Assembly: GCA_031269465.1 (NCBI GenBank)
Contig: JAISZB010000069.1
Coordinates: 1-18,667, forward strand
Source: Clostridiales bacterium
Lineage (GTDB): Bacteria > Bacillota > Clostridia > Lachnospirales > WQUN01
Direction of reading: 5' to 3'
DNA length: 18,667 nt
A program made the translations under genes and the position numbers. This document shows positions 2,444 to 17,568 of this stretch, piece after piece (position 1 is the first letter of the stretch; the number at the start of each line of letters is the position of its first letter). The notes beneath the pieces were generated by a model. That model was not told where the DNA came from. It worked only from the letters and a program-made list of their open reading frames with translations, and made no database searches.

Positions 2444-5008
2444 TCAAGCTTGCTTGAAGACTGCGGCAATCTTATCCAAAAGGTCTTCTCCTCCTGAGAT
2501 GTTGACGTTGCCAATCTTCTCGCAAACTGTCTTGAGGAGCTTTTCACGGTACTCCATTTCTTTTAGGCGCATCAATGTCTGGTTTTCTTCCATCATTTTG
2601 GCCGTATTCAGCAAGCTTCTGGTAGAGGCCACTTCCTCGCGCCGCGTAATGACATTGGACTGGGCTTGCTTTTCGGCTATAAGCACCGAGTTCATCATTT
2701 GGCGGATCTCTCCGGGAAGGATTATATCCTTTACCCCTGCGTCATAAAATTGAACAAAAAGCTCTGGCTCCTTTTCCTTCAGTCGGAGGAAGATAAAGTC
2801 GCTTATCTGGTCTTTGTTCTCCAACAATTCGTCCAGGCGAGCGCGGCCTACGCTGTCCCGGAGCGCCAACTGCACAATGCTGTGTATTTGCTCCTCGAAA
2901 TTGAGAATCTCTGTGCCAATCTTTACATAGTCGGTGATCTTGAAACGGCATACGCAGTTTATCCGCAACTGAACTTTATCCAGCGTAAGGATCTCCTGTC
3001 CTTGAATCTGCAACTGGGTAAGGCGCGTATCTACCAGCTCCACTCTCACGGATACGCCGTTGTTCCAGAAATAGTACGTTCCCTCATCGAGCAGTCGGAT
3101 GAATCTGTCGTTGTAATACAGACGGCCTTTTTGGTAATCCTTTACTTCTTCAAGTTTATACAGGTTATCAGACATCAGCTCGAAAATGTAATATGGTATG
3201 TCATCGGATATCAGTGGTTCGCGTATATCTATCATTTTGAAATCATGCTGATCTTTCAGCTTCCAAAATGCGTAGCGTCCGCTGGGCAACGCATCTGCGA
3301 AGCGGTTATTGCGGTAATGGAGAGCCACGGTTTCATCTGGCACTTCAAGCGGCTGCATTTCATCAGCCAACGCTTGGTCGGCCAAGTAAACGTCAAGGTT
3401 GTACTCCTTTGGGGAAAAAACGGAGTCCGTATTTACCTTGCTGCATGTGAAGCCGTTGCCAAGGAAGGCGTGCCTTCCCGGCTCAAGCATGTTTTGAAAT
3501 ACGCCGTTGTTGAAAAGAAAGCCGCGCTCATTGTCGTTAACTGAGAAAACTTTCAGCTCTTTTGACAATACAGGGTCTTTAAGAAATACATCTAGGCTAC
3601 GGCCTCCAGTGTCAAACGCCTTGCCGGCGGGCATCGAAGAGACGCTTCTGCTTCTGCCGAAGAAGATATGCCTGCCGGGCCTGAGCGTCCCGACAAACAA
3701 TCCTTCTTTATATAATGCTCCGAGGCAGTCATCCTCCACCTCAAAAACCTGCACCTCAGACGAGAAAACCTCATCTCTTAGGTATATATCCGTTTCGCTT
3801 GATTCAGGTATAAATTCTTTGTCTATGTCAACGTTCTTGCAAGTCCATGATTTGCCGAGATACGCGTGTTTTCCTGGTTTAAGGTACTTTTCAAACAAGC
3901 GGTTTTTATACAACACTCCGCGTTCGCCTTCAGAGATGACGTATATATGCAGAATTTCAGCCAGCTTAGGATCTTTAAGATAAATATCTGAACTGTACTT
4001 CTTAAGTTCAGTCTCCATTTCATATTGCTCTACACTAAAGGTTCGCCCGAGAAAGGCATGTCTGCCAGGAGGCAGCATTTTGACGAATAGTCCCGATTTA
4101 AACAAAAAGCCTCGCTGAGTTTCGTAGATTTCAAACACTTGAAGTTCTTCAGCAAGCTCGGGATAGCTTAAAAATACATCCAAAGGCGCGGATTTTGGAG
4201 AGAATTCAGCTTCAATCCGGGCAATTTCATAAGTAAAACCCTTGCCCAGATACGCATACTTGCCGGATTTGAATGATCTGATAAATTTGCCGTTTTTAAA
4301 GACTAGGGCGAACTCACCGTCCTTAACCTCGATTGGCAGCAAGAGTTTCGCTATGGCCGGATCGTGAGTGAAAATATCGATATCGTGACCTGCCGGCGCA
4401 AAGCGGTCATCCATGTTGACCCATACAATGCTGAAGCATTTGCCCAAATAAGCATGCTTGCCCGGAGAAAGCATTTTTTCAAATCGACCGTGCTTAAACA
4501 GGAGGCCTCTCTGGCCTTCCGGAATGTCAAATACTTGAAGTTCGGCAGTGAGATCGGGATCCTTGAGGAATACATCTACAGAGCCGTTTTTCGGCGCAAA
4601 GACACTGTCAGCTTCAACAATTTCGATTGTCCGACTTTTGGTCGCAAGCGCAACATCTCCAGGCTTAAGCAGTCTGGTGAATCGGCCGTTTATAAATAAC
4701 AGCCCTCGCTGATTTTCAAATATGCGGGTGAACATCGAACCCCAACCTTTCCTTAAGGATTTCCACAACGGCGCATTCAACGCATTTGTTTTATGCGATT
4801 TACCTAACGGCGTTGCCGGCTGCCCATGCGGCCTGACAGGCTGCGACGCTTCCAACTCATGCTGTTTGTCAATAGTTGAAGGCTGATCGCCGCTTTTCTG
4901 AGTCTGGGCTGCTCTTAAACATTTAAGAAGGCGAAGCAGCAACTTTCGCTGGAGTTCAGATTCGCAATCGGCCACCGGATCCCATCCTTTCAAAAATAAA
5001 TTTTCCAT
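2444..5008 (-). CDS. SPFH/band-7 (stomatin/prohibitin/flotillin/HflK-C) domain protein with a 9-unit N-terminal tandem repeat array; 854 aa as called
   Basis: Single 854-codon ORF.
- C-terminal third (aa ~625-800) is a canonical SPFH core: GRLYYNDRFIRLLDEGTYYFWNNGVSVRVELVDTRLTQLQIQGQEILTLDKVQLRINCVCRFKITD…IVQLALRDSVGRARLDELLENKDQI…DAGVKDIILPGEIRQMMNSVLIAEKQAQSNV. Compare stomatin QEILTKDSVTISVDGVVYYRV…LAQTTLRNVLGTKNL…WGIKVERVEIKDVKLP…AAEAEA. An Ala/Glu-rich coiled-coil-like tail follows.
- aa ~97-660 consist of nine tandem units with exact 65-67-aa periodicity, starting at aa 97, 163, 229, 296, 361, 426, 493, 558 and 624. Each has the form [D(I/V)(F/Y)L(K/R)DP.L..EL.VF.(V/I)]…(Q/E)RG.LFK.G.F…L.PG(K/R)HA(F/Y)LG..F, which is the pattern of the first β-hairpin of an SPFH domain. 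The last unit is the true start of the SPFH core.
- No hydrophobic N-terminal anchor.
- No strong SD at the 5008 ATG. An alternative start at 4732 (MFTRIF…) has AAGGAAAGG 10 nt upstream. Confidence 0.85.
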   Translation of the reverse strand: MENLFLKGWDPVADCESELQRKLLLRLLKCLRAAQTQKSGDQPSTIDKQHELEASQPVRPHGQPATPLGKSHKTNALNAPLWKSLRKGWGSMFTRIFENQRGLLFINGRFTRLLKPGDVALATKSRTIEIVEADSVFAPKNGSVDVFLKDPDLTAELQVFDIPEGQRGLLFKHGRFEKMLSPGKHAYLGKCFSIVWVNMDDRFAPAGHDIDIFTHDPAIAKLLLPIEVKDGEFALVFKNGKFIRSFKSGKYAYLGKGFTYEIARIEAEFSPKSAPLDVFLSYPELAEELQVFEIYETQRGFLFKSGLFVKMLPPGRHAFLGRTFSVEQYEMETELKKYSSDIYLKDPKLAEILHIYVISEGERGVLYKNRLFEKYLKPGKHAYLGKSWTCKNVDIDKEFIPESSETDIYLRDEVFSSEVQVFEVEDDCLGALYKEGLFVGTLRPGRHIFFGRSRSVSSMPAGKAFDTGGRSLDVFLKDPVLSKELKVFSVNDNERGFLFNNGVFQNMLEPGRHAFLGNGFTCSKVNTDSVFSPKEYNLDVYLADQALADEMQPLEVPDETVALHYRNNRFADALPSGRYAFWKLKDQHDFKMIDIREPLISDDIPYYIFELMSDNLYKLEEVKDYQKGRLYYNDRFIRLLDEGTYYFWNNGVSVRVELVDTRLTQLQIQGQEILTLDKVQLRINCVCRFKITDYVKIGTEILNFEEQIHSIVQLALRDSVGRARLDELLENKDQISDFIFLRLKEKEPELFVQFYDAGVKDIILPGEIRQMMNSVLIAEKQAQSNVITRREEVASTRSLLNTAKMMEENQTLMRLKEMEYREKLLKTVCEKIGNVNISGGEDLLDKIAAVFKQA
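3031..4726 (-). repeat. In-frame tandem array of ~198-bp (66-aa) units inside the SPFH gene: 8 full copies plus a 9th merged with the SPFH core
   Basis: Protein-level periodicity listed above. The units are divergent at DNA level, so the array is ancient rather than a recent slippage expansion. Confidence 0.7.
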
Positions 5009-5989
5009 TATTGCCGCGACCCGGCAGCAGAGCGCCGCGTATGCGCGCTTGCGCGGCGGGGCAATTAAGATATCCGAGAAAAACGCGGAAGCAAATCTTC
5101 GGAAAGACTGCTTTGGCGGAAATCACGTGACATCGGTATCCTCCCCCGGCATGGCGGTACACGCGTCGCCGTCTGCCCGTCTGGTTTGGGAATGCGGCAG
5201 GCATCGGCCCTGGCAGGGCGCAAAGCCTGCATTGTCATCCTTGCAAACCAAAACAGACAGGAGGGCGTAGCAGCGCTCAAAACCGGTAGTTCTGCGTATT
5301 CGGCTTTTATGGAAATTCGATCTGGAATTCATCATCTCCTAAACAAATTTGCTTTCGTGTCATCGGTTTCCGGAAACACCCCGCACGAACCCGCCGGGCG
5401 CCGCCAGCCGTTGTAATGGCTGGAATAGAAACGGATGCTAATATTATAGCACGAAAGAATAACAAAAATGTTACGTTATATTTACAATTTTATATCAAGC
5501 TCGTTCATGCATATGAGAGTATAAAGCGCTTGAAATATGTCTTTCTGTTGCTTCAGCAGCTATACTGATGCGCTTTGCCGTCTGCCATGGGCAAATCGCG
5601 GCGATTAATAAGCTTATGGCTTAGCCCGATTCTATATTAGATCTAAGGCGAGCCGAGCTTTATGAAGGCGATGGATGGAGTTCTCCAGAGGCGCGAAATT
5701 CGCCTTGCAAATACAGTTGAACTTTAGGAAATCAAGGGATAATGCTTCGGTTGAAAATCCATCCCGAATTTTATACAGTATGCTGGCAATTCATATGAAA
5801 AAAGGAGGATGTGCAGTGTTCAAGCTCAATGCAGGCTATACTTTCTCCTGCAAGGAGGCGATCGTCGGGCTCGGGTCGGCGCGTGCGCCGACCGAGCCGC
5901 CGCGGAGATAAAGGATGGACGCTCGGATTTCCTCAAGGATCGCAACTCCGCGTCGCCGACGCCCATGAAGTTTTTTGAGGGGGAGGTTG

Positions 5990-6870
5990 GCCGACGCGCT
6001 CGGCGAAGTTGAAGTCGAGCCTGATTTTAAAGGGATCTCATCGGATCTTCGCGAAGAGGCGGCGGAAGCGCCGGATCCGCGCCAGTCCGCCAAAGCGGCC
6101 CGCCGGCTCCCGGACATGCCCGTCGCGGCACTGCTCGCCATTTTGCGAGGCGCGAACCCTTGGGGCGGCCTCGCGAGATTCGCCGGCGCCAACGCTGCTG
6201 GGATCCGCTTCTCCGCGACAGGCGACACGTTTCAAAACACATTTTCAAGAATCGACGACAACATTATTCTCAGGCATCTGGGCGGCTTCTTAAGCCGCCT
6301 GTCTCAGGCGGCCTCGCAAGCAAGGCGGAGGCCCTGCCAGCTGCCTGCGACACCTTCCCCGAAGAAATAATGCGCATTTCGCGCGACCGAAAGGAAAATG
6401 TCGGATCAGGGAAGGGCGGCGCAGCGAAAGCCAACATATCGGGCGCGTACGACTCCAAAACCGGTGCTGTTCCCGTCAGGGGCTAATCAACGCGAAAACC
6501 GATGAAACCGCGGCGATTCCGGCGCTGGTCGACCATGCCGGCGAAGCCGCGCGAGGATCCATGTCCGCATGGGACGCGCCGGATGCGACGGACAAGAACG
6601 CTAAGAAGGCCATTGAAGCCGGGACGAGCTGCGTTTAGGCGCTCAAGGGCGGCGCAGCGCGCATTTTCAAGCGAAACTGCGATATATTATGGCTGTCGGG
6701 ATAGAGGCCGGAACGGGGTGCGTCGAGATATTGAAAGACGGCATCCCGGCCATCCGCTGGGTTGCGAAAAGAGGCTGAGCGGACTATTTTGCGGCAGCCG
6801 GCATTTCGCGCTCCTGCAACTCGGATAAATAGGCCGAGTCGGACTCCATCCGCAGTTGGAGATGCAGTCC
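5990..6870 (+). mobile_element. ISAs1-family (H-repeat-like) transposase remnant, multiply frameshifted, GC-rich; boundaries approximate
   Basis: Matches the ISAs1 N-terminal pattern (…DPR…H.L.DIL…GA..W.DI..FG…FENGIPSHDT..RVFSRIDP…) in the frame of ORF 5975-6370:
LREEAAEAPDPRQSAKAARRLPDMPVAALLAILRGANPWGGLARFAGANAAGIRFSATGDTFQNTFSRIDDNII.
Matches the ISAs1 DDE-region motifs (SNEITAIP.LL and TIDAMGCQ…ALKGNQ) in other frames, interrupted by stops:
…DSKTGAVPVRG/LINAKTDETAAIPALVDHAG… (6489-6540) and …AWDAPDATDKNAKKAIEAGTSCV*ALKGGAA (to ~6660). Confidence 0.5.
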
Positions 6871-7090: not shown

Positions 7091-8300
7091 ATGAACGCAG
7101 AGGAATTCACAGGGAAATTCAACCTTGAAATTTCCAAGTTCGGCTATAAATCCAAGACTCAAAATGCGTACTTGAAACGCTGCAAAGAAATAATGTCTTT
7201 TATGCAACTGGAAGACATTCAGCTTTTCACGGAGGAATCCCTGGAAACATGCCTTGACTGTTTGCGGATTCGGTGCTATTCAGGCGAAATAAAGCCTGCC
7301 GCCCGCAAAATCCCGCGGAGGGCCGCCAGGCTCATGCATGAGCTCAAAGAAAACGGATCGCTGGAGCGGCGCGCCATGGCAGATGGGAAAGCTTTCAAGC
7401 CGACAAGCATGAAGGGCGCATATGAGGAGTTCATCGCATCCGCCTCAAAGCGGCCAGCGCCATCCACTATGCAGGACTTCAGGATCTGCGGCCGCAAGTT
7501 CATCGCGTTTTTGGAAGGCGCAAACCGCGCGGATTTCGAGAATTCCTGCGCCAAGGCCTTGAAGGATTGCATTTTCTTCATGGCTTCATCAAGCAAGCTT
7601 AACGGCTGTCAAAGATTCATTTATGTCTTGAGGGCTTTCTGCGGCTTCTTGTCCCCGAAGGGATTGATCAAGCCTGAAATGGCCGGGATAATGCAGAAGC
7701 CCGCGGGAAGCCGGAGAGACATCCTGCCATACCTGAAGCGGGGGCATGTCGAGGGCCTTCTTGGGCCGAGCCGACGGCATGCAAAACTGCAAGGGAAACT
7801 ATGCCATGACAGCCTTGCCGGCCAACACGGGCTTGAGGTTCGGCGTGATCAGCGAGCTGAAGCTGACAGGCATAGATTGGCGCGGCAACGCCATAAACGC
7901 ATTTCAAGGCAAAAATTCCCAAGCCAGTCAAGCCCCTCTTGACGCCGCGGCCGGCTATCGCTTCAATGAGCGTCCGCAAGGCAAAAACGCGGAATGCATG
8001 TTCATAAGCTCCCGGGCTCCGCACACAAAGCTGGCCGGAGGGAAGCTCATGAAAAAGCGCTTGGAGAAGGCGGGCCTTTGCGAGGGCGAAAGCGGATTCC
8101 ACGCCCTGGGGCGCGGAATAGCCGCGGATCTTCTTGAAGCCGGCGCGGATCATGAGATAGTTTCCCAGATTGACGGGCATATGCGGCTTGAGTCCCTGGA
8201 TCCCTACTTTGCTGTTGACATTGAAGGCTTAAGGAAAAGGCGCCGCGCCAGCTTCGAGGATCTCGGCGCCCCTGCGTCCAGCTGGGGCGCCAAACCTTGA
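7091..8300 (+). pseudogene. Tyrosine recombinase 1 (RitA-like, ~400 aa if repaired) with one frameshift near 7765
   Basis: - N-terminal ~220 aa are in frame A (7091-7942).
- The catalytic domain is in frame B (7746-8300): LLG-RADGMQNCKGNYAMTALPANTGLRFGVISELKLTGIDWRGNAINAFQGKNSQ…FISSRAPHTKLAGGKLMKKRLEKAGLCEGESGFHALGRGIAADLLEAGADHEIVSQIDGHMRLESLDPYF. This carries the box I region, HxLR, a second His and the catalytic Tyr.
- The frames join at LLG, where a GGGCC run (7763-7767) has one base too many. Confidence 0.65.
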
Positions 8301-8332: not shown

Positions 8333-9061
8333 GACTTCGCGGACATGATTGAATGCAAAGCCGCCCTCGGCTTTAAGGAGAGCTCATGCTACGGAAGCCC
8401 GCTCAATTTTGATCGCTTCCGCCTCAAGAGCTTTCCCGGCGAATGCAGCATATCAAGCGAAATGCTGCTTGAATGGCTTGAGCCAAGGCCGAGGGAGGGC
8501 GTCAACGGCGCTGCCGCCAGATCATATTCCGCGGCGGGCTTGGCGAACTGCATCAACGCCATGGGGGGGACGTCGCATGTCCTGCATGCGGGCTATCTGG
8601 GGAAACGCGCCCGCTGCAATCCCTACATGTATTCCGACATGGAGTTGAAGCTGTTCATCTTTGCCACAGACTTGCACGCGCATGCGAAAAACCCTTTGGA
8701 CACCACTGTCCGCGACATCTTCAGGCTGCAGCGCTCCTGCGGGTTGCGGCCTTTCGAGCCGCGCCTGCTGAAGCGCGGCGATGTTGATTTCGAAGGCGAA
8801 ACCATTTATATAGCCGACTCGAGGATGCACAATGCGGGGTTTCATGAAAAGCCTGGGATTTTATTTATGTGCGTGTTACGAAAAAAATACTAACGTTCTC
8901 ATTTCTTGAGGCGCAGTTTCGTCACAAAATGCGTGCACAAGTATCTTTATGAAGGCCCTGTCGATTTCAAGTCCATCATTGTGCATTTCCAAAGATGCCC
9001 GGGCCATGCGAAGATCAGCGAGACACTGTACTACATGCGCCTGGTGCGGAAAGGATCCTGA
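8333..9061 (+). pseudogene. Tyrosine recombinase 2 (RitB-like, short) with an in-frame TAA at 8891-8893
   Basis: Frame-2 ORF 8345-8893 reads …YSDMELKLFIFATD…NPLDTTVRDIFRLQRSCGLRPFEPRLLKRGDVDFEGETIYIADSRMHNAGF…, the box I-like region. In the same frame after the TAA it continues SHFLRRSFVTKCVHKYLYEGPVDFKSIIVHFQRCPGHAKISETLYYMRLVRKGS* (8897-9061), which carries HxxR…GH…Y. So the break is a nonsense codon, not an indel. Confidence 0.55.
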
Positions 9062-9157: not shown

Positions 9158-9720
9158 ATGTCTCCCCCGGCGGCGAAAGAAAAGCTCCGCCGCTGCCGAA
9201 AACTGCAAATGCGCGCGGAATGTTTTTTTGACTGTCTCGGAGATGTGGAGAAAATCAGCGTCACGGACATAAGCTTTGATAAAATGGCATTTGGCGTCAT
9301 GAACGGATTCGCGCAATGGATGCTTGAGGCGGGGAAATGCAAGAACAGCTCCGCGAATCAAAGGCTATCGCGCATATGGGCGTTCTGCAGGCGCGCATCG
9401 TTGCGAAAGCCTGCCTGCGGCATTTGCTGCAATGAGGTGAAGAGCGCCGGCTCCTTGGATGCCGGCAAGGGCAGGCAAGTGAAATTCTTTTCCGAGGACG
9501 CTCTCCAAGCCATTTTGGAGCAGCCGGACGCATCCGCCAAAATCGGCTGGGGGATTTCTCCCTCATGCTTCTGATGCATGACGCAGGCGCCAGGGCCGGC
9601 GAAATTCTGAAGTTGAGGCTGCCGGGCATTGAATCCCATTCAAGGGAGCTGATAGTGGGCGTCGAAGGAAAAGGGGGCAAGCTCAGGCAGATCCCCCTTA
9701 TGGATGCAACGTGCGCGTAA
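9158..9720 (+). pseudogene. Tyrosine recombinase 3 (RitC-like): N-terminal core-binding domain plus box I only; frameshift at ~9550 and 3'-truncated at ~9720
   Basis: - 9158-9574 has the SAM-like core-binding pattern: …MAFGVMNGFAQWMLEAGKCKNSSANQRLSRIWAFCRRAS…FFSEDALQAILEQPDASAKIGW.
- The frame then shifts inside a G5 run (9549-9553). Restoring one G gives GDFSLMLLMHDAGARAGEILKLRLPGIESHSRELIVGVEGKGGKLRQIPLMDATCA*.
- No HxxR/Y region follows. The sequence becomes AT-rich promoter DNA at 9721. Confidence 0.6.
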
Positions 9721-10023: not shown

Positions 10024-10404
10024 ATGATGGAATTTGTACCTTTAAGAAGTCTACAGCGGGGATTACCAGAGGTCTGGCAGACTCTGCGCAAAGAAAATGG
10101 CCGAATTATTTTGACCAATAAAGGTCAACCAGCATATTTGCTTGTTGATTTAGCAGATAAAGACATCATCAATTTAATTAATTTTTTTGACGACTATCAA
10201 GCAAAAGCGGCGAGTGCGACTTGCGATCCAAAAGTTGAGACAAGTCAGAAACTAACGCCTCAAGAAGAAAAAGCCGCCCAAAATTTTTTAGCGGCAATGC
10301 AAACATTTAGAGAGACTAACTTTACACCAGAGGTTCTAAAGGCATTTACTGAACTTGAGAGCGGTAAATACCGACCTAAGTTATTTCGGGAGCTTGACTT
10401 ATGA
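10024..10404 (+). CDS. Type II antitoxin, Phd/YefM family (126 aa)
   Basis: N-terminus MMEFVPLRSLQRGLPEVWQTLRKENGRIILTNKGQPAYLLVDLADKDIINLI fits the Phd/YefM fold pattern (…ARQNL…PIlITrnG.p.avLvsl..Y..L). Its stop overlaps the toxin start (ATGA at 10401-10404). Confidence 0.8.
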   Translation: MMEFVPLRSLQRGLPEVWQTLRKENGRIILTNKGQPAYLLVDLADKDIINLINFFDDYQAKAASATCDPKVETSQKLTPQEEKAAQNFLAAMQTFRETNFTPEVLKAFTELESGKYRPKLFRELDL

Positions 10405-10814
10405 TATATGCACTTGATACCAATATTGTTTCATACATCATCAGGGGTGAAGGAGAAGCTGACAAGCGATTTTCACAAGAGCTTCAGGCCGGCAATTCAT
10501 TTGCCATTCCACCAATGGCGGTCTACGAATTAAAACGTTGGCTAATGGATAATCCATCGAAAGAAATGAGATTTCTGGCTCGAGAATTCGATAGTTTATA
10601 CAAAAGTGTACGCCACAAATCAGAAATGTCCGCTTCTGCATGGGAAGAAGCGGCGAAAATTTATATTCATTTAAAGCAAAAAGGTGAATTGATTGAAGAC
10701 ATGCATATTTTAATTGCCTCTTATTGTTTAGTGAATGATTATGTACTGGCAACTAATAATGCTAGACATTTTGATCGGATAGATGGAATAAAATATGTTA
10801 ATTGGATGAATTAG
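10401..10814 (+). CDS. vapC: Type II toxin VapC (PIN-domain ribonuclease), 137 aa
   Basis: MIYALDTNIVSYIIRGEGEADKRF… carries the PIN acidic residues: D in LDTN, E in YELK, D in IEDMHILIAS, and N/D in ATNNARHFDRI. The 4-bp ATGA overlap with the antitoxin indicates translational coupling. An 11-bp perfect inverted repeat (10818-10828 / 10848-10858) follows the stop. Confidence 0.85.
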   Translation: MIYALDTNIVSYIIRGEGEADKRFSQELQAGNSFAIPPMAVYELKRWLMDNPSKEMRFLAREFDSLYKSVRHKSEMSASAWEEAAKIYIHLKQKGELIEDMHILIASYCLVNDYVLATNNARHFDRIDGIKYVNWMN

Positions 10815-14815: not shown

Positions 14816-15801
14816 GCCAGAGGCGGCAAAATGGTAGTCTTGCAATGCGGCGGCATAGAGTGCCTCATGCTATACCGGGCGACAATAGAGGAGGCGGAAG
14901 CCTAGAGTAACGGAATTTTGTCGGGGTGCGACTGTCTCCTGAACATAAGATTAAGGTGGAGATTTGCTCTATCTCAAATGCTTTCAAGATAATATCAGTG
15001 GAGAGTTTGAGAAGATGGCATAAGCTTGCAAAGGAAGGAATATGATAGACCGTGTATGCCTAAAGAACTGATGATGGGACTTAATCGAGAGTCTAAGTTC
15101 GGAGAGCATCCATCTCAAAGGATATTATTCTAAATATAGTCGCAATCTAAAGCCAAGCCCAAAAATAAGGACTTGCATCAGTATAACTGCTCGCAGGGTG
15201 GAAAAGTGCATCAGCAGCTTATAGCTGGTTGCATTAGTTGAGTGATGGCTTCGGAAAATGTGGACATTGGGAAGTGGAGCTTCTCTAAGGGCAATAGCAA
15301 GGGAATGAGGAAAGTGTAGAAGCGCTAAAAGTTCATTTGCAAAAACAATTCCCAAGAGATTATTTTCTATGGTTCCCCAAGAAGCGCTTCTTGGCGGAGG
15401 GTTTCTTCAGGGGCCAAGGCGGATAAGCTTTGGACGGCATAGGTTGAATTAGTGCCTGAGGCCGTCCTCGCTGCAGCAATTGTTTTACTTCTAAGCCGCA
15501 GCAAACGGGATGGATATTATTCACGCAGATTACTCAGCTAAATATAGAAAACAGCAGTATCGGCTGCCGCCAGAACGAAATCAATCATGGCTGATTTATC
15601 AAAATAAGCGAACGATTCTATGCCGCAATTTTTTGCGCTTGCAGAAGAGTTGAAAACATGAATATACGGCTAGACTTTCGCAACTCTGCCCGCTGTACTC
15701 TGCAGTTCGCTGCATGTTGATTCCTTATGGCAGATTTTTCGCTTTTTGCATAGAGGCTTTCATCAGTTTTTTCGCCGTTGCCAGGGGTCATGGAGGTAAA
15801 T

Positions 15802-17568
15802 ATGGAAGAAAATTTCGAAGATTTGCTTGACCGTATGCTTACAGCTCTGCATGCCGCTGAAAAGAGACATCGGGCGGTTCGAGACAGCGCATCCGACAGC
15901 AGTAATTGGAGCGCCTACGACAATGAAGTTAAATTTATTTCTGACATAATCAAATGGCGAAGAGACTTAGAGCCGCTTCGTATGCATATTGTCAGTTCCG
16001 GGGCGGTAATCGTCGAGGATGTTCCTCAAGCTGCTGGTTCATCTGACAAAGAGCCCGTTCCAGTCAGCGTTGAGGATGATCCCGCGGCCCATCGCTTCGA
16101 CGATGAGCGCATAGGGCGTTATGTAAGGCGGAAAATGAAAGATTTGAGCAATGCGGGGTTTGCGTTCCCGGCTGAAGGCATTGCGAATCTGCAAAATGCC
16201 CAGTGGTGCTTTCAGGTTCTAAATATAGCGCACCCTTTCTTTTTGCAAACAACACAGAAAGCGACTCATTATTGGAAAAGTGATATTTTTATATTTAACG
16301 GCAGGTCATTCCGCCTCTGTATGGAATGGTACAATGATCTGTATAGGGGCCGCAGCCAGCGCGAATGCTTCGACAACTGGTATAATAGCCTATCCATTGA
16401 TACAAGTTCCGAGTCTTTTAAAGACGGCGAAGAAATCAGAATCGGCGAATATATTCGCAGCAAACTCCGAGAGTTGAGCAACAGCGGGTTTGCATTTACT
16501 GAAGATCAGATAAAGCAGCTAGGTGATGTAGAATGGAGCAGTGTGACATTTGCCAAGAAATCTTTTTTGCCAATTGCGAGAATTGCAAAGAGAAATCAAG
16601 ATATTAGCCTGCAAATAAGAGACGATAGAGGTAAAGTCAGATATTGGAATGAGTTGTTTTCTTTCGGAAAAACTGACTTGCTGTTTACTAACAGATGGAA
16701 ACTGCGGAATAGGGAGAGCTTCGATAGGTGGTACGAAAAACTCTCGCAAGTTGAAAAAACAATTGCGGCTGATACCCTTATATTTAGAAAGACTGTGAAC
16801 TGGTCTATGCTGAATTACGGATTTTCAGTGCCAGCATCAAATTGGGGGCTTTTATTTGACGCGATAGGGGGAGCTGTTGATAGGGCCGCCGGTCGGAAAG
16901 TATCTGTGGATGTAGCAGGCGTAAGTTGTACAGCGCTTGTTTCTTGTTCAGTGAGCGGAAATAAAAAGACGGTTCAAATACGCTATCCTCAGAACAGCGG
17001 CATACTATCTTATCTTAGAGAGAGCTTTGCTGATATTTACGCCTATTGCATTCAAGAACGCAACCTTCACGGCAAGGACAGGCGCATTGACATCCCCTCC
17101 GATATGGAAGGAAGCATAAGCATTTACGCGGCAAAAGAGCAGAAAGCACTGAGAATTGACTGCGGATCTCATAAGATAGGAAATGGCGTTGAGGCGCAGG
17201 CTGAAACGGTAATTATTCATGCTAAATCACAATTTAATGGGGATGGCATCGTAGAGGTTTCTAATTCTTTTGTTCCGATTTTGAAATTCCCAGACAGAAA
17301 TTTTATTATTTGCGCCAAGCTTAATGCGGATGCTCAATCGGTTTCGTTTAGAGCTGAGGCGGAAGGCAGCCCGCATGCCGAAAAATCTCTCACGGTCGCC
17401 CATCTAAAAGAAGTCGCTCTGCTTGAAAGGAGCAAACGCATTCATCGAGTCGCTGTTCCAGAGAGCGTGAATGTCAGAAAGAAAATGATGTTTATGGCGT
17501 GGATTGACCCTCCGGGGATTAACATTCAGGAAGAAACGCCAATATCCCAACCTTTGGAAGAGCCCTGA
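15802..17568 (+). CDS. Hypothetical protein, 589 aa (596 aa from the upstream ATG at 15778), with two ~100-aa internal repeats; no recognisable domain
   Basis: The long ORF is the only open frame on either strand here. GGAGG lies 5 nt upstream of the ATG at 15802. Repeat 1 (aa ~106-205) is DDERIGRYVRRKMKDLSNAGFAFPAEGIANLQNAQW…FNGRSFRLCMEWYNDLYRGRSQRECFDNWYNSLS. Repeat 2 (aa ~216-323) is GEEIRIGEYIRSKLRELSNSGFAFTEDQIKQLGDVEWS…FTNRWKLRNRESFDRWYEKLS. The shared motifs are IG.Y(V/I)R.K(M/L)(K/R)(D/E)LSN.GFAF and (E/R)(C/S)FD.WY..LS. The C-terminal ~270 aa are non-repetitive. Confidence 0.75.
   Translation: MEENFEDLLDRMLTALHAAEKRHRAVRDSASDSSNWSAYDNEVKFISDIIKWRRDLEPLRMHIVSSGAVIVEDVPQAAGSSDKEPVPVSVEDDPAAHRFDDERIGRYVRRKMKDLSNAGFAFPAEGIANLQNAQWCFQVLNIAHPFFLQTTQKATHYWKSDIFIFNGRSFRLCMEWYNDLYRGRSQRECFDNWYNSLSIDTSSESFKDGEEIRIGEYIRSKLRELSNSGFAFTEDQIKQLGDVEWSSVTFAKKSFLPIARIAKRNQDISLQIRDDRGKVRYWNELFSFGKTDLLFTNRWKLRNRESFDRWYEKLSQVEKTIAADTLIFRKTVNWSMLNYGFSVPASNWGLLFDAIGGAVDRAAGRKVSVDVAGVSCTALVSCSVSGNKKTVQIRYPQNSGILSYLRESFADIYAYCIQERNLHGKDRRIDIPSDMEGSISIYAAKEQKALRIDCGSHKIGNGVEAQAETVIIHAKSQFNGDGIVEVSNSFVPILKFPDRNFIICAKLNADAQSVSFRAEAEGSPHAEKSLTVAHLKEVALLERSKRIHRVAVPESVNVRKKMMFMAWIDPPGINIQEETPISQPLEEP

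Follow-up and report, generated by a model that had tools for sequence, protein, structure and literature searches.

A gene on the minus strand of an 18.7-kb contig from a Clostridiales metagenome-assembled genome (this whole stretch of DNA is termed the window below) encodes an SPFH protein of the stomatin type that lacks a membrane anchor and in which nine tandem β modules of the SPFH1 type are followed by an SPFH2 domain and a coiled coil. We show that this arrangement, SPFH1-like ×9 (A7-B-C), SPFH2 and coiled coil, is a long-array form nested in a widespread family built on the basic plan A-B-C-SPFH2-coiled coil. The nine-module form is new, and its parent family is known but essentially uncharacterised, its three-module members carrying the NCBI label 'slipin family protein'. 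The gene is further preceded by an uncatalogued sequence element that we put forward, from its pairing pattern, as a candidate new structured RNA accompanying the SPFH gene.

Nine tandem modules ahead of an anchor-free SPFH core

The C-terminal part of the protein matches the Pfam Band_7 model (PF01145) over amino acids (aa) 633-792 with an E-value of 1.1e-26 (94 bits), solved stomatins align with it from aa 621 to 824, and the profile of the family as a whole matches these stomatins at E 6e-34. By comparison, an NCBIfam scan of the protein gave only sub-threshold matches to HflK and HflC, and a PADLOC scan gave no match. A coiled-coil helix follows SPFH2 in a structural model with a predicted local distance difference test (pLDDT) value of 92 (Table 1). 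No transmembrane helix was detected, 19-residue Kyte-Doolittle means peaking at 1.13 for the window protein and going no higher than 1.43 for its six homologues, and no NfeD partner was found among the open reading frames (ORFs) of the window that were scanned or in the loci of the homologues. An earlier sequence-only reading of the window, which gave no strand for the gene, had proposed just such an SPFH core with a coiled-coil tail, devoid of both a membrane anchor and an adjacent nfeD gene, and all these points are borne out.

N-terminal to the core, PG(K/R)H-type anchors are found at aa 116, 182, 248, 314, 378, 444, 510, 576 and 642, and their spacings of 66, 66, 66, 64, 66, 66, 66 and 66 aa define nine modules in exact phase. 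When typed against the A, B and C modules of a typical three-module relative, modules 1-7 are of type A, module 8 is of type B and module 9 is of type C. Units 1-7 share 27-48% identity among themselves, and units 8 and 9 share 14-27% with the rest. A hidden Markov model (HMM) built solely from units 1-7 of the window scored every unit in the homologues at 48-74 bits; it further gave unit 8 a score of 20.7 bits, against 6.8 for the highest-scoring of 2000 composition-preserving shuffles, and unit 9, which is the N-terminus of the SPFH domain itself, a score of 23.2 bits, against 5.9 for the shuffles. The core motifs are conserved in every module, the module length is kept at 64-67 aa, and G11, L13, L23, G26, G32, F46, D59, L62 and L66 constitute a set of conserved, interface-like residues. 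Pfam, NCBIfam and PADLOC contain no model for these N-terminal modules, and the unit profile used alone against the sequences of the PDB recovered neither SPFH proteins nor the major vault protein (MVP). Tandem Repeats Finder detected no tandem repeat at the DNA level, which indicates that the amplification of the modules is old.

The modules were modeled with AlphaFold in two ways. In the full-length model, which used a seven-sequence alignment that is too shallow for the SPFH core, each unit adopts five β strands followed by two short helices, with modules 1-8 at pLDDT 75-88; Foldseek searches of the PDB with this model returned only weak stomatin matches along with meaningless multidomain ones. 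The second model, of aa 486-854, used a 50-sequence alignment and attained a pLDDT of 92.4 and a predicted template modeling (pTM) score of 0.73. In this model modules 7, 8 and 9 display an identical five-strand pattern, and module 9 runs straight into the α/β core and thence into the two coiled-coil helices. The N-terminal β part of the SPFH domain is named SPFH1 in structural papers and, as all units share its five-strand pattern, the repeat corresponds to the whole SPFH1 β subdomain rather than to its first hairpin alone.

These observations refine the sequence-only reading in several respects. Its exact phase and its count of eight additional modules plus the domain's own both hold, with the modules now resolved into three kinds (A ×7, B and C), and the repeats matched no catalogued repeat family that would have contradicted it. 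The homology of the repeat to the SPFH N-terminus likewise stands, but the unit is a module of five strands and two helices, not the amplified hairpin that had been envisaged; correspondingly, the D(I/V)(F/Y)L(K/R)DP motif, taken earlier as the strand that opens a unit, covers both helices together with strand one of the module that follows. The suggestion that the array forms a β-solenoid is rejected, because the models show discrete five-strand β modules in a row, a plan known from MVP.

The real start of the protein is probably M92, and not the GTG used in the NCBI entry (LBU32_05925). We place it there because unit 1 (MRVIIxENERGLLF) is the exact starting point of each of the six homologues and M92 holds that position in the window, because AAGGAAAGG is located 11 nt ahead of the ATG of M92 (nt 4735), because the model is poorly defined upstream (pLDDT below 50 for aa 1-9 and 34-91, with a helix at aa 18-38 of about 61-63), and because the DNA of codons 1-91 partly aligns with the untranslated leader of relatives. 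No counterpart of codons 1-91 is seen in any of the six homologues. Nevertheless, the chance expectation for a 91-codon open frame is only about 1.3% by a uniform-codon estimate, which leaves room for translation, and this stretch may be an N-terminal extension of the window protein; if translated, it would be basic (pI 9.6) and is mostly disordered in the model. The gene itself is intact and shows about 45% identity across its full length to six metagenomic relatives.

Table 1. Features of the SPFH gene and its leader in the window
Feature	Position	Strand	Description
Full open frame of the SPFH gene	2444..5008	minus	854 codons + stop; NCBI version starts at the GTG of codon 12 (843 aa)
Probable true coding sequence, M92 to stop	2444..4735	minus	763 aa, 87.8 kDa, pI 5.6
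Upstream open codons (n=91)	4736..5008	minus	without homologue; leader RNA or lineage-specific N-terminal extension; start codon ambiguous
Modules 1-7, aa 92-551	3356..4735	minus	A-type, SPFH1-like; 64-66 aa, five β strands + two short helices each
Module 8, aa 552-617	3158..3355	minus	B-type, SPFH1-like; orthologue of the second module in three-module relatives
Module 9, aa 618-663	3020..3157	minus	C-type; the SPFH domain's own N-terminal β part (SPFH1)
SPFH2 α/β core, aa 664-765	2714..3019	minus	
Coiled-coil helices, aa 766-808 and 810-832; short C-terminal helix, aa 843-853	2447..2713	minus	from the AlphaFold model of aa 486-854
Candidate structured RNA element, directly 5' of the SPFH gene	5026..5168	minus	R1 71.7 bits, E 2e-20; invariant core AGGAUACCG

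A widespread family with repeated growth of the module array

A word-indexed search covering 5.8 billion proteins yielded only six full-length relatives, of which five have nine modules or are partial and one has seven. Far more was recovered with a profile of the 66-aa unit, which among 1.84 billion cluster representatives matched 709 at E <= 0.001 and 143 at E <= 1e-10. Module counts were taken over 76 complete representatives: 43 have three modules, nine have four, 13 have five, four have six, two have seven, four have nine and one has 11. The architecture, which had appeared isolated in the sequence-only reading, is thus one member of a graded series. A scan of genomes located relatives in at least 592 species. 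Its best 80 loci, to which all figures for three-module loci given below refer, encode without exception proteins that have three modules and measure about 370 aa, and the lineages represented include Clostridia, Paenibacillus, Negativicutes and Bacteroidota. These proteins are up to 57% identical to modules 7-9 and the core of the window protein; those of loci L006-L024 show 43-57% identity over 365 aa, and several of them belong to WYL-WYL-SPFH-RtcB operons. Three-module slipins are also contained in E. coli records.

The longer arrays were not all built from the same modules. The seven-module protein P0008 (L090, 620-2533) has the form A-(B-C')2-B-C, and the eleven-module protein P0036 (L089, 2609-5293), which is 894 aa in length and has no RtcB nearby, has the form (A-B)5-C. 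Given that different lineages amplified different modules, the SPFH1 column has been lengthened independently several times. Modules 2-7 of the window protein and of P0003, a protein encoded in the metagenome-assembled genome GCA_032073745.1, lack one-to-one orthology, which could reflect either separate amplifications or exchange among the repeats. Three-module relatives with 32-36% identity are additionally encoded by four viral or proviral IMG/VR contigs (L091-L094), from which it follows that this SPFH family is occasionally phage-borne.

RNA-repair neighbors and a conserved leader RNA

The three-module loci frequently include genes of RtcB RNA repair. A gene for the RtcB RNA ligase adjoins the SPFH gene on the same strand in 37 of the 80, regulators with helix-turn-helix (HTH), WYL and WCX domains are present in 40 of the 80, and RlaP is found in some; the identities of the RtcB, WYL and RlaP neighbors were confirmed by Pfam. 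Beside the closest three-module relatives the gene order is WYL, WYL, SPFH, RtcB, and the seven-module P0008 locus has the order RNA element, SPFH, RtcB, RlaP. An RtcB gene adjacent to a Band-7 protein and a tRNA-like RNA has been described previously (10.1101/312249), and a Band-7 module operating with a band-7-associated tRNA in RtcB repair was predicted by Burroughs and Aravind in 2016, as related in 10.1101/312249. Similarly, PaFlo8 lies inside a Pseudomonas rtc locus (PMC13086221). The RtcB context of the three-module genes agrees with the predicted Band-7 module (10.1101/312249) and with that of PaFlo8 (PMC13086221).

Matches to tRNAs or tRNA-like genes were recovered just upstream of the SPFH gene in Bacteroidota loci. 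We observed tRNA or tRNA-like genes just upstream of three-module SPFH genes, and on the same strand, in L009 (5659-5738), L036 (5573-5668), L061 (5037-5101), L065 (5120-5202) and L071 (5077-5160); some of these are unusual in their length (80-96 nt) or score low against tRNA models (35-46 bits). Such upstream genes are candidates for the predicted band-7-associated tRNA. A variant organization is seen in Citrobacter freundii (L095, NZ_CP151862.1, 3969-7922), where rtcR, a 450-nt gap, the slipin gene and a nucleotidyltransferase gene form an operon without rtcB; the gap has no match in Rfam or to the covariance model described below.

The nine-module clade, by comparison, has lost its RtcB, WYL and RlaP neighbors, and no protein neighbor is conserved among the window and the related loci L001, L004 and L005. 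The only conserved surroundings of the nine-module genes are about 330 nt of upstream DNA, the 3' half of which (about 125 nt, with the invariant AGGAUACCG) also precedes three-module genes. We built a covariance model of this element, R1, and scanned it over 87 loci, which yielded 32 copies, all on the strand of the SPFH gene and directly 5' of it. The element is thereby present in the window and in 31 other loci, RtcB operons included. Copies are located at 9777-9901 in L001, 8439-8564 in L004, 9779-9902 in L005, 5777-5901 in L086, 1934-2070 in L087 and 465-591 in L090, the last ahead of the seven-module SPFH-RtcB-RlaP operon at 67 bits; those of L006, L007, L014 and L015 also lie just 5' of the SPFH gene. 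In the R1 alignment 86.8% of the cells are paired, compared with 60% after shuffling and 34-48% when the partners are slid, and 213 cells show double changes as against 73, with strong covariation in three helices; these figures are biased in favor of the structure, as the alignment was fitted to the R1 model.

Rfam 15 has no match to the element in the window, in the leaders or in the loci of 11 relatives, where it reported ordinary tRNAs only. ARAGORN and Rfam were likewise negative for a tRNA identity of the leader, which we reject, and its resemblance to the boxes of the ZTP and cobalamin riboswitches is superficial, with neither identity supported by Rfam. The leader is a candidate for a cis-regulatory, riboswitch-like RNA or for a stable RNA partner. 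In the nine-module clade a further stretch of about 160 nt is conserved 5' of the element (L001 9617-9776, L004 8281-8438, L005 9613-9778, L086 5618-5776), with weaker conservation in the window (5169-5237, minus strand); it carries GTCCGCGGCAACTGGCGTATACGC...GGAGGTGGACGC and is preceded by the promoter-like box TATGATATGAT.

The remaining surroundings in the window include integrase fragments, a PIN toxin, a transposase-associated fragment, a CAAX protease and a GH2 fragment. The island of recombinase and toxin debris noted in the sequence-only reading is thus real insofar as integrase, PIN and transposase-associated sequences are concerned, but the informative context of the family is RtcB RNA repair, which has been lost here. 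The segment 5500-9500 has a GC content of 0.52-0.585 versus about 0.45-0.48 on both flanks and contains the transposase-associated fragment (5975-6370) and phage-integrase fragments (7746-8300, 8345-8893 and 9158-9574), and has the appearance of a decayed mobile element that inserted beside the SPFH gene. A 126-aa ORF (10024-10404) lying ahead of the PIN-domain ORF (10401-10814) could encode the corresponding antitoxin. Two long plus-strand ORFs, at 15778-17568 (596 aa) and 7091-7942 (283 aa), have no Pfam match.

Proposed assembly, alternative explanations and known systems

As the explanation of the whole we favor, with somewhat better than even confidence, a soluble ring or barrel assembly. 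Under this proposal many copies would associate laterally through their SPFH2 domains and coiled coils into a ring with a helical cap, as we infer because all solved SPFH proteins assemble in this manner. A published regression, subunits = 0.1782 × CC1 length + 10.22, in which CC1 is the first helix, would give about 18 copies for the 43-aa helix of the aa 486-854 model and about 22 for the 65-aa helix of the full-length model. The column of SPFH1-like modules beneath each SPFH2 would lengthen the wall and yield a soluble barrel or half-vault in place of a dome capped by a membrane, MVP being a protein that uses its nine SPFH1-like repeats in this way. More speculatively, 1) the length of the wall might be set by the number of modules; 2) the chamber or scaffold might serve RNA-damage handling by holding or concentrating RtcB, RlaP, RNA substrates or the leader RNA; and 3) in the nine-module clade the gene might have become independent of RtcB while keeping its RNA leader. 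The broader generalization, that bacteria repeatedly and independently built vault-like, membrane-free SPFH barrels with 7, 9 or 11 SPFH1 copies that act together with a dedicated structured RNA in response to RNA damage, is offered as a tentative possibility and is in our estimate rather doubtful.

Several observations weigh against the favored assembly and its proposed role. On the structural side, the full-length model has a pTM of 0.38, by which the relative orientation of the nine modules is not established, and we infer both ring formation and wall geometry from analogy alone. The neutral to acidic character of the modules gives no indication that they bind RNA directly. With respect to MVP, the window protein has no match to the Pfam Vault or MVP_shoulder models, MVP is absent from the PDB matches of the family profile up to an E-value of 10, an hhalign comparison with rat MVP gives a probability of 1.2% confined to the homologous SPFH2 strands, and the unit profile finds nothing in MVP. 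With respect to function, RtcB, RlaP and WYL/RtcR are absent from the window and from L001, L004 and L005, and also from L086-L088 according to the recorded gene annotations; moreover, ARAGORN and Rfam detect no tRNA or tRNA-like gene in the window or in the nine-module loci. In the absence of these genes from the nine-module loci, their link to RNA repair is one inherited from relatives. Finally, a Pseudomonas knockout of the SPFH gene embedded in the rtc locus had no phenotype in the assays used (PMC13086221).

In one alternative, SPFH2 and the coiled coil would form the usual ring and the module array would be a flexible, multivalent arm for a protein or RNA partner instead of a closed wall. 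The poorly defined inter-module geometry of the nine-module protein (pTM 0.38) would fit such arms, as would the amplification of different module types in different lineages, which is expected if valency outweighs exact packing. Yet the three-module segment is predicted in a fixed arrangement (pTM 0.73), the modules hold their length and conserve interface-like residues, and an array of the same kind constitutes the wall of the vault (PMC12915596, PMC11348225), for which reasons we judge arms to be unlikely, if still a serious alternative. A peripheral membrane scaffold, in which the terminal SPFH1-like module would attach the protein to the cytoplasmic face in the manner of flotillins and the extra modules would only raise the dome, takes its appeal from the fact that most SPFH assemblies abut the membrane, with flotillins doing so without a transmembrane domain (PMC12624060), and that SPFH1 is the membrane-proximal part of those complexes. 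We consider it distinctly improbable here, in view of homologues that start directly with a β strand, the lack of any hydrophobic or amphipathic N-terminal segment or evident acylation signal in the sequence, and recurrent partners that are cytosolic RNA enzymes.

The neighborhoods of the nine-module genes bring to mind a different role, namely a stress or anti-phage defense module unrelated to RNA repair, with the nine-module gene recruited into defense islands. WYL regulators are common in defense systems, the relatives have as neighbors type I restriction genes (L005), GmrSD (L086) and a KAP NTPase with Imm33 and SMI1_KNR4 (L001), the window contains PIN and integrase debris, and three-module relatives are found on the four viral contigs. 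Against this stand the negative PADLOC scan and the conservation of the upstream RNA, and of no protein neighbor, across the nine-module loci, and we accordingly regard a defense role as very unlikely. The abundance of gene fragments in the window, together with the ambiguous start codon, might even suggest a neutral or decaying repeat expansion without a specific function in a pseudogene-rich region. This is scarcely credible for a gene with 763 intact codons, core motifs maintained in every module and a retained upstream RNA element, the more so as five relatives with nine modules or partial sequences are 44-47% identical to the window protein (the sixth has seven modules).

The significance of the family lies in several directions: 1) It shows a vault-like construction principle arising inside the bacterial stomatin lineage, with intermediates of 3, 4, 5, 6, 7, 9 and 11 modules still visible and the trace of module amplification still readable in sequence. 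2) It furnishes a natural series for understanding how the SPFH1 copy number sets the geometry of the cage. 3) The members from cultured Paenibacillus, Flavobacterium, Citrobacter and E. coli offer a tractable system for anchor-free SPFH assembly in RtcB RNA repair. 4) A new candidate structured RNA travels with the SPFH gene. 5) The function of the vault is itself unknown and, should the repeated building of vault-like barrels by bacteria prove correct, there would now be a prokaryotic, genetically tractable analogue of this eukaryotic particle along with a plausible evolutionary route to it.

Among known systems, the canonical stomatins PH1511 and QmcA/YbbK are the best matches of the window protein among solved structures and have the SPFH1-SPFH2-coiled-coil core in common with it, but they differ in being anchored in the membrane at the N-terminus, in containing only one SPFH1 and in having an adjacent NfeD gene, none of which holds for the window protein. 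The RtcB-associated Band-7/SPFH proteins ('slipin', PaFlo8) are closer: they too lack an anchor and possess SPFH1-like modules A and B, and they are direct relatives, whose identity reaches 57% across modules 7-9, SPFH2 and the coiled coil; those of Clostridia also have the upstream RNA element in common with the window gene. They differ in having three modules and in being usually placed beside RtcB, WYL or RlaP, whereas the window protein has nine modules, with A present seven-fold, and no such neighbors.

The third comparison is with MVP. Its R1-R9 repeats have been described as 'homologous to SPFH1 domains', its shoulder as SPFH2 and its cap helix as a coiled coil (PMC12915596), and its domain plan has also been described elsewhere (PMC11348225). 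By sequence the window protein is not a member of the MVP family, and direct descent from or to MVP is rejected, as neither hhalign nor the unit profile gives any sequence signal. The likeness is one of plan: both proteins combine nine SPFH1-like β modules with an SPFH2 'shoulder' and a long coiled-coil helix, and both lack a membrane anchor, with the equivalence in fold between the window modules and the R domains being taken from literature descriptions. They are also alike in size (763-854 aa versus 861 aa) and in their association with RNA, namely vault RNA in the case of MVP, and RNA-repair operons and the candidate leader RNA in the family of the window protein. The vault, which is closed, membrane-free and built with many SPFH1 modules, is considered an exception among the otherwise membrane-bound SPFH cages (PMC12624060), and the window protein repeats the domain plan of this exceptional form down to the number of modules.

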